From positions 7,872-71,871 of the forward strand of contig CAZVHA010000008.1 in assembly GCA_964626905.1 (NCBI GenBank): a stretch of DNA of 64,000 nt, read 5' to 3'. Within the stretch, counting starts at the first letter, position 1. Every line of letters begins with the position of its first letter. Positions 5,809-39,084 of the stretch are shown here, piece after piece. The notes below the pieces were generated by a model that was given only the letters and a program-made list of their open reading frames with translations, was not told the DNA's origin and did not search any database. This stretch comes from an uncultured bacterium (GTDB lineage Bacteria > Chlamydiota > Chlamydiia > Chlamydiales > SM23-39). Both the position numbers and the translations under genes were made by a program.

Positions 5809-5987
5809 GGCTTTGTTGCATTAAAGGCGGCAAAATAACCACCGAGGACACCGAAAACACCGAGAAAAAGGGAAGCGAGAAAAAGGGAAGAAAGTGCGCG
5901 CCTCTGAGCCTCTGAGCTCTCGGTGTGCTCAGTGGTAAAATATTTACTCAAGCCTGTTGGAACTTCGGCGATTTATGCAACAACGCC
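5809..5987 (-). mobile_element. MITE-like element, family A (TGTTGCATAA terminal-repeat core), copy 1, inverted relative to copy 2
   Basis: The reverse complement aligns along most of its length with 29544-29734. Ends are ggctttgttgcatta... and ...tttatgcaacaacgcc. Flanking 9-mers are ATTTACCAT (5800-5808) and ATTTACTAT (5988-5996), matching at 8/9. Confidence 0.75.
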
Positions 5988-36929: not shown

Positions 36930-38004
36930 TCAAGATTTTTTTTTAAATCCTTCCATCCACGGATGGGAGAGGATTTCCTCACACTTGGAAATTCGGAGTT
37001 CTAGGTTGCGAGCCATCAATTTTGCAATCAAATGAACGAGCATAGGAGAACGATTCGCTTTGGTATAGATAGAGAGCTTTTGGGTCAGAACATTTTGATA
37101 AATTTCGTACTTGTCCTTTCCGTCAAAAGGGGGCCTATTAAATGCAAGAAAATAAAGAGTAGCACCTAAACGACCAAAAATCCACTCTATGGTCATATGG
37201 GTTTAAAAGCACAAGTTCAGGAGCCGCATAGCGAAGCGTATTCCGGGGAGTATGCTTTCCTGAATATTCAATTTTCTTGGCAGCCTCAAAATCAGTTAAT
37301 CTCACAACGCCATCTTTGAAAAGAAGAACATTTTCAGGCTTAATATCTCGGTGGACGATCTCCTGTGCATGCAAATAGGCGACTGCACTCACAATCTGTT
37401 TGAAATAAGAATGAATTTCTTCTTCAGATAACGAAGGCCCCCGAGCAAGAGAAAACAGGTCACTTTCAGCAAGCTCCAAAAGGGTGTACACATAGTCATC
37501 CTTTTTAAAATAGGCATAGCACTTCACAATATTTGGATGACTGCACTTTTGGAATATCTCCACTTCTCTGTTAAGGTAAACGCTGTCTAACCTTTTCTTT
37601 TTAAGAACAAATTGTTTGTCACTTGCTTTGTGCACTACATGGCAGACGTAAGACTTTGGTGGATTCTCCCCTAGACAACGAATGATTTCATAACGCGATG
37701 GGTCCAAGTACTCTTCATACGGGCAGATCAATTCGGCTGCTGCTGGAGGCTTTTGCAGAAATAGATCCTCCTCATCGTTTTCAAAAGAAGAAATGGGCAC
37801 CCTAGGAGAACGAATGTCACGATCATGCAATGAGTCCCAATCATCTCTTTCAAAAAAAGAAATGGGTGGTATCCCAGGGGGATGGTAAGCAAGGGCTTTT
37901 AAGGCAACATTTTGGGTGGTACTATCAATGGATGAAATGAGCTCTTTTTCCAATTCCCCTTCGGGTTCTCGAGGAAAAAAGCAGGGACAAAGATACTCAA
38001 TCAT
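36930..38004 (-). pseudogene. Eukaryote-like (AGC-like) Ser/Thr kinase interrupted by a 1-nt frameshift
   Basis: ORF 37138..38004 carries HRDIKPENVLL, RLTDFEAAK, YAAPE and VDFWSF, then stops. ORF 36930..37196 continues in another frame with GATLYFLAFNRPPFDG...HPWMEG. The shift lies within gcacctaaacga (37163-37174). Confidence 0.75.
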
Positions 38005-38060
38005 AGAGGTCGGAAATTGTATTCACAACGACAAAACAAGTCAATTCAGTACTGATTTGG

Positions 38061-38255
38061 GGGTGTGTTGCATAACCCCCCATCCACGTTTTTGTGTAAT
38101 GAAGACAGCATCAACGATAAGAACGATGTAACGATATGAACGATAGTGCATTACAAAATATTTTTATCGTTTACATCGTTATATCGTTCCACCGTTTTTT
38201 TGGATAGTTGGGAGAAGGTCGTCTCTATGAGCAACAGGGGTTATGCAACACACCC
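38061..38255. mobile_element. MITE-like element with a family-A terminal-repeat core, copy 3 (195 bp): perfect 19-bp TIR and perfect 9-bp TSD, with a different interior
   Basis: gggtgtgttgcataacccc at 38061-38079 equals the reverse complement of 38237-38255. CTGATTTGG occurs at 38052-38060 and 38256-38264. The interior is rich in AACGAT/ATCGTT inverted repeats. Confidence 0.85.
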
Positions 38256-38363
38256 CTGATTTGGAGCTGCTGGGCTCTACTTGACGTCATTGACGTTATT
38301 TGATTTTTTAGGCACAATTTCTTCACAATTTAACGATTTCTTAACAACCAAGGGAGTTTTGAT

Positions 38364-38714
38364 ATGTCAGGCATAGTAATGGCAACTTTAAGGGACGGTT
38401 CTCAAGTTCCTGAGGCACTCGTAGTCGCAACAACGATGAACCTCACGGCTGCTGCCAAGGAAAGTTACGTTGCACTATTTGATTTGGCAGAAAAATGCAA
38501 AGATGCAAGCTACAAATTTTTTGTAAATCCATTTGGTGATTCCAAAGCCATTTTGAAATCACGGACACTTATTAATGAAGATGAAACAGTGGATGAAGAT
38601 GTGAGAAAGATCGTCTTGAATTCCATTGCAGGAAAAGGGCTATCTTTAAAGCTTGTGAACCCACTTCAAGGTAAAAAGGTAACTGTAGTGGAAAAAAAAA
38701 CGGACGACCAATAG
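38364..38714 (+). CDS. Hypothetical protein (116 aa)
   Basis: ORF only. Confidence 0.4.
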   Translation: MSGIVMATLRDGSQVPEALVVATTMNLTAAAKESYVALFDLAEKCKDASYKFFVNPFGDSKAILKSRTLINEDETVDEDVRKIVLNSIAGKGLSLKLVNPLQGKKVTVVEKKTDDQ

Positions 38715-38775
38715 ATTCCAAACTTTAGCTTATTTGCATACCCTTGATGCATATCGGGGTGTGCATGTGTAGTCA

Positions 38776-39084
38776 TTACGAGAATCTGTCGTTTGGAGGC
38801 CGAAAGCCCAATTCCTCGATCAATGTATCGGCTGCCTTTTGCACCTCCATGGTCACCTTGTGCCAGGGGTCATAGTTGTATTGAAATTCCACTTGCCCCA
38901 CAAAACGGAGCACTTGTCCTTGGATCGCCGTCTCCAGGTACATCGCCCGGACCATTAAATCCCCAATGAACTTTTCGGCCCGCTTCCGATCCCCAACATG
39001 CAGGTAATAAATGATTTGAACGATGTCATCCAACATTTCTAATTTAGATCGAATAGGAATTTCTGGCTTTTGGCTACTAATCAT
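38776..39084 (-). CDS. Hypothetical protein (102 aa)
   Basis: ORF only. Confidence 0.4.
   Translation of the reverse strand: MISSQKPEIPIRSKLEMLDDIVQIIYYLHVGDRKRAEKFIGDLMVRAMYLETAIQGQVLRFVGQVEFQYNYDPWHKVTMEVQKAADTLIEELGFRPPNDRFS

Follow-up and report, generated by a model that had tools for sequence, protein, structure and literature searches.

A short interval with repeated ends (positions 38061-38255) lies beside a kinase gene in the 64-kb stretch of DNA analysed here, referred to as the window. Two questions arise from it: (i) whether the interval is a mobile element or a fixed structure; and (ii) if it is mobile, whether it was moved by the same transposase as two other short elements of the window, copies 1 and 2 (5809-5987 and 29544-29734).

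The ends of the interval are exact. The left terminal inverted repeat (38061-38079, + strand; GGGTGTGTTGCATAACCCC) has a perfect reverse complement, 19 of 19 nt, in the right repeat at 38237-38255 (- strand; GGGGTTATGCAACACACCC as read on the + strand), and the match grows to 20 nt if G38060 and C38256 are counted, both of which overlap the flanking duplication. That duplication, CTGATTTGG, occupies 38052-38060 on the left and 38256-38264 on the right, with 9/9 positions identical. Inside the left repeat come a subterminal segment (38080-38112), four copies of the hexamer AACGAT beginning at 38113, 38122, 38130 and 38139 (38113-38144, + strand; period 8-9 bp) and an AT-rich centre of 21 nt (38145-38165) that forms the loop of a predicted hairpin. 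These are followed by an inverted array at 38166-38196 (+ strand), made up of ATCGTT at 38166, 38175 and 38183 and a degenerate ACCGTT at 38191, and by a right subterminal segment (38197-38236). A preliminary description of this DNA had reported perfect 19-bp ends, a perfect 9-bp duplication and an interior of AACGAT/ATCGTT inverted repeats, and direct reading of 38052-38264 confirms all three, with four AACGAT and four ATCGTT-type hexamers. The 19-mer end occurs at only two sites in the window with up to 3 mismatches allowed (0 expected by chance), and the window holds no second AACGAT/ATCGTT array. At 195 bp the interval is within the size range of MITEs (below ~300 bp); it is non-coding, no ORF lying wholly inside it, and has the inverted ends and target-site duplication of such elements. 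Pieces resembling the element end occur also at 38732-38763, where TTTGCATACCC is followed 13 nt on by GGGGTGTG; they may be a scrambled remnant or chance, and were rejected as a second end for their wrong order and short length.

Evidence for mobility comes from the four groundwater metagenomes that are the source runs (X1-X4). Contigs of all four stop exactly at 38061 and at 38255. In run X2 the word depth is ~53 in the flanks, 312-405 at the ends and 123 in the interior, and the ratios in X1, X3 and X4 are similar, so that the element stands at ~2-8 times flank depth; these depths are taken from metagenome contigs and are summed over all organisms in a sample. At least two other left flanks and at least three other right flanks adjoin the same ends in these runs. 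Because some of the contigs with other flanks (15-35 kb) have a depth equal to that of the window's own contig, further copies are probably present in the same genome. A 231-bp contig from a second study spans the full element, differing at 1 base, with ...ATTCTGACT on one side and ATTCTGACT... on the other, which is a second 9-bp duplication, and the right flank of this copy is also present in the source runs. Two other assemblies of the window locus have the element at an identical position and differ from it at two bases. Multiple copies at distinct sites are thus indicated by depth, other flanks, the second site and six further full copies described below, and the flawless ends and duplication mark the insertion as recent. 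The interval 38061-38255 is a recently inserted MITE, multicopy in the source samples and found there with several flanks.

One might suppose instead that the interval is a fixed, non-mobile regulatory structure (a terminator, for instance, or a small RNA gene) whose inverted ends arose by chance. Its predicted fold is indeed very stable (-79.8 kcal/mol as RNA, z -9.4; -43.5 as DNA, z -8.5), and it is located between two promoters. Nevertheless, its exact ends are common with insertion sequences, 9-bp duplications accompany it at several unrelated sites, it has many flanks and it is absent in a relative, all of which run against a fixed element. An Rfam search at a permissive threshold gave two sub-threshold matches to microRNA hairpins and nothing else, which we read as chance. 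No RNA sequencing runs holding the element were found. We consider a fixed regulatory element extremely improbable.

As the preliminary description had it, the element is just upstream of a frameshifted kinase gene, its left end being 56 nt from the ATG at 38004. The gene (36930-38004, - strand) encodes a eukaryote-like Ser/Thr kinase split into two ORFs, 37138-38004 and 36930-37196, and Pfam Pkinase matches both pieces. The further statement that the element lies in the promoter region of the kinase holds only loosely: a promoter-like -35/-10 pair, TTGACT-17-TACAAT (38016-38044, - strand; a consensus match only), is downstream of the element and remains intact between it and the ATG. On the other side is ORF116 (38364-38714, + strand; no Pfam match), preceded by TTGACG-17-CACAAT at 38290-38318, again a consensus match only. 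The element therefore sits between two putative divergent core promoters, those of the kinase and ORF116, and not within either one; no outward promoter-like site was seen inside it. The kinase frameshift, at the ORF overlap 37138-37196, is ~0.8 kb from the element and is a separate lesion, not caused by the insertion. A relative (L041, ~91% identical) has an intact kinase homologue of 363 aa that is 80% identical. Apart from this one relative, the best matches of the window kinase (37138-38004) are eukaryotic kinases of the Aurora and calcium-dependent types, at 33-44% identity.

The relative also bears on how the element arrived. In L041 an ORF102 homologue is followed by 41 bp and then by the intact kinase gene, and both the element and a ~520-bp segment containing ORF116 (38265-38786) are absent; a contig of run X5, from another study, has the same join, from 38057 to 38795, and likewise no element. 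Since 737 bp in total are missing, more than the element alone, neither L041 nor the X5 contig, the relatives compared, offers a clean empty site (...CAGTACTGATTTGGAGCTGCTGG...). It is conceivable that the element and the ORF116 segment arrived as one unit (38061-38786), by one-ended or composite transposition through the element's left end: the relative is without both, its junction falls within 3 nt of the insertion point, and the element adjoins the left edge of the indel. A joint arrival is nonetheless improbable. The 9/9 duplication brackets the 195-bp element alone, which is why we treat the two as separate events; at the far edge only 6/9 positions agree with it (GTCGTTTGG), and there is no second end near 38786. 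In addition, direct repeats of 7 bp (TTTGGAG, at 38258-38264 and 38782-38788) surround the ORF116 segment and would fit an ordinary deletion in the relative, or an insertion, at microhomology.

The preliminary description had proposed identifying the cognate transposase, and the same 18-nt end does bound insertion sequences of 1.06-1.18 kb with intact IS5-family transposases of 299-313 aa, in other genomes. A scan of one genome per species with the 18-mer found 35 loci, about 20 of them in Chlamydiota MAGs, as judged from record titles and flanking sequence, and often at contig ends. About a third of the 35 (L005, L009, L015 and L035; L006, L008, L021 and L033) are conserved coding sequence from other phyla and were put down to chance, as were the matches in viral contigs, where the 18-mer fell in a single GC-rich phage gene region, present in five copies and lacking any feature of an element. 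The full-length elements include one of 1058 bp with an intact 299-aa transposase gene (L032, which has the 18-mer at both ends, and L174-183); one of 1182 bp with a 313-aa transposase (L054); an intact 299-aa transposase gene next to a perfect end in a Chlamydiota MAG (L020); and one of 1136 bp with the 18-mer at both ends and a frameshifted transposase gene (L010). Next to the 1058-bp element, TGGTAACCA stands on the left in one contig and on the right in a second, which indicates a 9-bp duplication. The inverted ends of full-length elements in this lineage are long, ~75-100 nt, and reach well past the 18-nt core (L010 3539-3615/4598-4674; L054 1358-1460/2440-2539), and the same long end occurs in several Chlamydiota loci (L013, L016, L014, L025 and L024) with no transposase gene nearby. 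The 1058-bp element (L032, L027, L174-L183) is found in many aquifer metagenomes and in MAGs that bear the labels Bdellovibrio and Chitinophagales; contigs that pass through it join different flanks, a pattern due either to spread across phyla or to artefacts of binning and assembly.

The transposase of the 1058-bp element (L032) has the Pfam domains DDE_Tnp_1_5 and DDE_Tnp_1 and scores 217 bits against the NCBIfam model NF033579 (IS5 family; cutoff 140). Aligned over 89% of its length, it is 33% identical to the transposase of IS903B (E 5e-41). Its 468 homologues at E <=1e-30 are mostly on contigs of ~1.1 kb, the pattern to be expected when an insertion sequence has many copies. No transposase gene or transposase similarity is present in the 64-kb window, and the source runs gave no match at >=80% DNA identity to three reference insertion sequences (L020, L010 and L032). 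Run X5 contains low-depth fragments of a related transposase, and when sequencing runs were searched with the L032 insertion sequence, only other aquifer studies matched.

These relatives place the element in the IS903 group. IS903B, as read from a plasmid (L053), is 1057 bp long with ends GGCTTTGTTGAATAAATC. The element end agrees with it at 13/18 positions, keeping the GG tip and the TGTTG.ATAA core and differing at positions 3, 5, 11, 16 and 17. A 9-bp duplication, a trait of the group, is present in the window (9/9), in three further copies (L023 9/9, L051 9/9 and L049 8/9) and in a contig of run X5 (9/9). The other hallmark, a single DDE transposase of ~300 aa in an element of ~1.05 kb, is seen in the full-length relatives (L032) and does not apply to a MITE. 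The relatives and IS903B are alike in size (1058 versus 1057 bp) and in transposase domain layout; they differ in that the transposases are only 33% identical, and the element itself, unlike IS903B, is geneless. Since it shares its ends exactly with an IS903-group insertion sequence, we regard the element as a non-autonomous derivative that uses those ends. Taken as a whole, the observations are very probably explained by a non-autonomous IS903-group (IS5 family) MITE that uses the ends of full-length relatives.

In the mechanism that we propose, the two 19-nt ends would be the sites recognised and cut by the DDE transposase of a full-length relative of ~1.06-1.18 kb, carrying one gene of 299-313 aa between the same 18-nt ends. 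The transposase would insert the element, whether excised or copied, by staggered cuts with a 9-bp offset, which on repair would leave the CTGATTTGG duplication. The element encodes nothing and would be mobilised in trans, which would imply that a source of the transposase exists, or recently existed, in this genome. In these respects the element is selfish DNA of an ordinary sort, its one unusual feature being the conserved internal hexamer array.

The second question is whether this transposase also moved copies 1 and 2. The three elements share a 10-nt core, TGTTGCATAA, which occurs at five sites in the window against 0.1 expected, and all five are ends of these elements (5973, 29549, 29720, 38066 and 38241). 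The preliminary description noted that only this core is common to the element and copies 1 and 2; their interiors, read directly, indeed show no similarity beyond it. It also allowed that the core might be coincidental. This has not proved to be the case: the ends of all three elements can be aligned with GGCTTTGTTGAATAAATC, the end of the IS903 group, and each element gives a 9-bp duplication, and the core is for these reasons best read as homology within the IS903 group.

Homology of the ends does not make them one type. The ends of copies 1 and 2 (GGCTTTGTTGCATAAATC type) are ISAba12/IS903-like and agree with IS903B at 15-17 of 18 positions. ISAba12, ISAjo1, ISEcl7 and ISNov2 have ends close to this type, all with 9-bp duplications (PMC6382973). 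The element end, GGGTGTGTTGCATAACCC, agrees with the consensus of copies 1 and 2 at 14/18 positions, differing at 3, 5, 16 and 17, and is identical letter for letter to the ends of a separate full-length lineage (L010, L020, L032 and L054). Between the two types, GGGTGTG and GGCTTTG, no intermediates were seen among ~40 ends of the element's type in the Chlamydiota loci fetched, all of which keep GGGTGTG. With ends alike at 14/18 and unrelated interiors, the element does not belong to one family with copies 1 and 2.

The preliminary description had proposed that a single transposase mobilises all three elements, as three subfamilies of one system. End positions 6-15 (TGTTGCATAA) and the 9-bp duplication are common to the three, both end types belong to the IS903 group, and all three elements are in one genome, as such a system would have it. 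In the IS903 end genetics of Derbyshire and Grindley, the outermost 3 bases reportedly matter for cleavage and positions 6-16 for binding. Set against a single system are the four differing positions, the separation of the autonomous relatives (ISAba12, ISAjo1 and ISEcl7 on the side of copies 1 and 2; L010, L020, L032 and L054 on the side of the element) and the uniform GGGTGTG ends, and we consider it unlikely. As the ends differ at 4/18 positions with no intermediates, two related transposases, one for the element and another for copies 1 and 2, appear more likely than one. What stands of the earlier proposal is that the element is a MITE and that its end bounds several unrelated interiors; a common transposase for all three elements is not supported in the form proposed.

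The interior of the element has its own family. A metagenome scan for the end together with two hexamers yielded six loci, which with the genome loci gave seven full copies: the window copy (195 bp; duplication 9/9), L050 (195 bp; 94% identical to the window copy), L023 (205 bp; CGCGAAGGG, 9/9), L048 (192 bp; no recognisable duplication), L049 (204 bp; 8/9), L051 (191 bp; ATTCAATCG, 9/9) and L030 (188 bp), in which one end has decayed and only 2/4 inverted hexamers are kept. Six of the seven follow a common plan. On each side there is a 19-nt end and 27-45 unconserved nt; further in are four AACGAT-type hexamers with an 8-9-bp period, an AT-rich centre of 18-26 nt and four inverted hexamers. 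The AACGAT array is kept in all seven. Among five sublineages the mean pairwise identity is 0.86 for the ends and 0.80 for the hexamers, and it falls to 0.37 for the subterminal segments and 0.42 for the spacers and centre. A blastn search of the element against plasmids and phages gave no match, and a search of the literature found no description of this hexamer family. The hexamer-array pattern has more than 118 matches in viral contigs, many of them GVMAG; most cover 24 nt, in keeping with a 9-nt period, and they were taken for tandem 9-nt repeats and set aside.

The copies differ in how far the two arms of the array are complementary. The stretches that separate the hexamers are non-complementary in L023, L048 and L049, so that only the hexamers pair; in L051 the arms form a perfect palindrome, complementary over 38 bp. 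Two hexamer changes are matched on the opposite arm (AATGAT/ATCATT in L051, AACGGT/ACCGTT in L050). To judge from these alignments, the conserved unit is the hexamer, its number and its spacing, and arm complementarity comes on top of these and varies, a pattern that fits putative protein-binding sites better than a mere hairpin. The array is also not simply a deletion remnant of the full-length elements that we examined, because these have no hexamer array.

A function need not be invoked at all if the interior is a palindrome whose likeness among copies comes from common descent and from correction of one hairpin arm by the other within a strand. This is possible, although we find it doubtful. 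The matched changes of L051 and L050 and the 38-bp complementary arms of L051 are what such homogenisation would give, yet the hexamers, the 4+4 number and the 8-9-bp period are kept in L023, L048 and L049, whose spacers are non-complementary. Moreover, the hexamers are conserved across sublineages whereas the neighbouring sequence is close to random; correction between arms would produce likeness within a copy, not the same hexamer across lineages that are ~60% identical elsewhere. We favour a functional array, which would most likely serve the element's own propagation, for example through putative protein-binding sites or through a fold-back that would bring the ends together.

A bolder and rather doubtful idea, which we put forward tentatively, is that the 4+4 array is a conserved protein-binding cassette carried around environmental chlamydial genomes by this MITE family. 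Such a cassette could consist of subterminal sites for the transposase or an accessory protein, a feature that would be undescribed in the IS903 group. Alternatively, the cassette could act as a mobile operator recognised by a chlamydial DNA-binding protein, in which case new regulatory sites would be seeded next to genes. In maize Ac/Ds, a eukaryotic hAT element, multiple subterminal hexamers inside the ends bind the transposase; the transposases are unrelated, and the likeness to the AACGAT array is a functional analogy only, as a putative binding array. The array is the one feature of the element that could repay further work, being kept about as well as the ends while the lineages are otherwise near-random, and if it binds protein it would give a handle on how such elements compete for transposase or spread regulatory sites.

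Small hairpin-forming repeats near or within genes are known from other bacteria. The Correia (NEMIS) elements of Neisseria and the Rickettsia palindromic elements are of this kind, and the Correia elements have an internal IHF-binding site and a TA duplication. Both differ from the present element in their ends, their duplications and their transposase, which is different or unknown, and to our knowledge the hexamer array is in none of them. A closer parallel is MITEAba12 of Acinetobacter, a short, non-coding element of 113 bp with imperfect 16-nt ends of the GGCTTTGTTGCAYAAA type and 9-bp target duplications, which adjoins genes and is mobilised in trans by a co-resident IS5-family insertion sequence, its parent being ISAba12 (PMC6382973). 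The element described here is likewise short, non-coding and next to genes, with ends of the IS903-group type and a 9-bp duplication, and trans mobilisation would apply to it as well. It differs in its length of 195 bp, its 19-nt ends (GGGTGTGTTGCATAACCCC) and its conserved 4+4 hexamer array, and in that intact insertion sequences with its ends were found in other genomes, while none turned up in the 64-kb window or, at >=80% DNA identity, in the source runs. Copies 1 and 2 of the window are closer to MITEAba12 than this element is.

Expansions of insertion sequences in Chlamydiota have already been reported (PMC9723776); our search of the literature found no report of MITEs in this phylum. 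The element is a clear example of transposable DNA that was recently active in an uncultured chlamydia-like bacterium, and it is one member of a family that is widespread in environmental Chlamydiota. Its exact end sequence connects dozens of fragmented Chlamydiota MAG contigs, which aids their annotation, and its presence at so many contig fragments explains assembly breaks.

Within Chlamydiota MAGs and metagenomes the GGGTGTG end bounds several unrelated interiors, among them the hexamer type and a second type represented by L002 and L003. Others are 116 bp (L022 7683-7798 and L029 4481-4596), 166 bp (L025 5526-5691) and 235 bp (run X8) in length; the 116-bp and 166-bp elements, from Rhabdochlamydiaceae and Parachlamydiales MAGs, have GGGTGTGTTGCATAAC ends and unrelated interiors. 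Two of the types are combined in L003 (4008-4226) and L047 (2560-2760), where an element of the hexamer type is cut off behind its third hexamer by another element, the end of which is a variant (GAGACCGTTGCATAATCCC / GAGACCATTGCATAAC). The remainder of the interrupting element matches L002, and the arrangement, which occurs at the same point in two samples, is either a nested insertion or a chimeric element.
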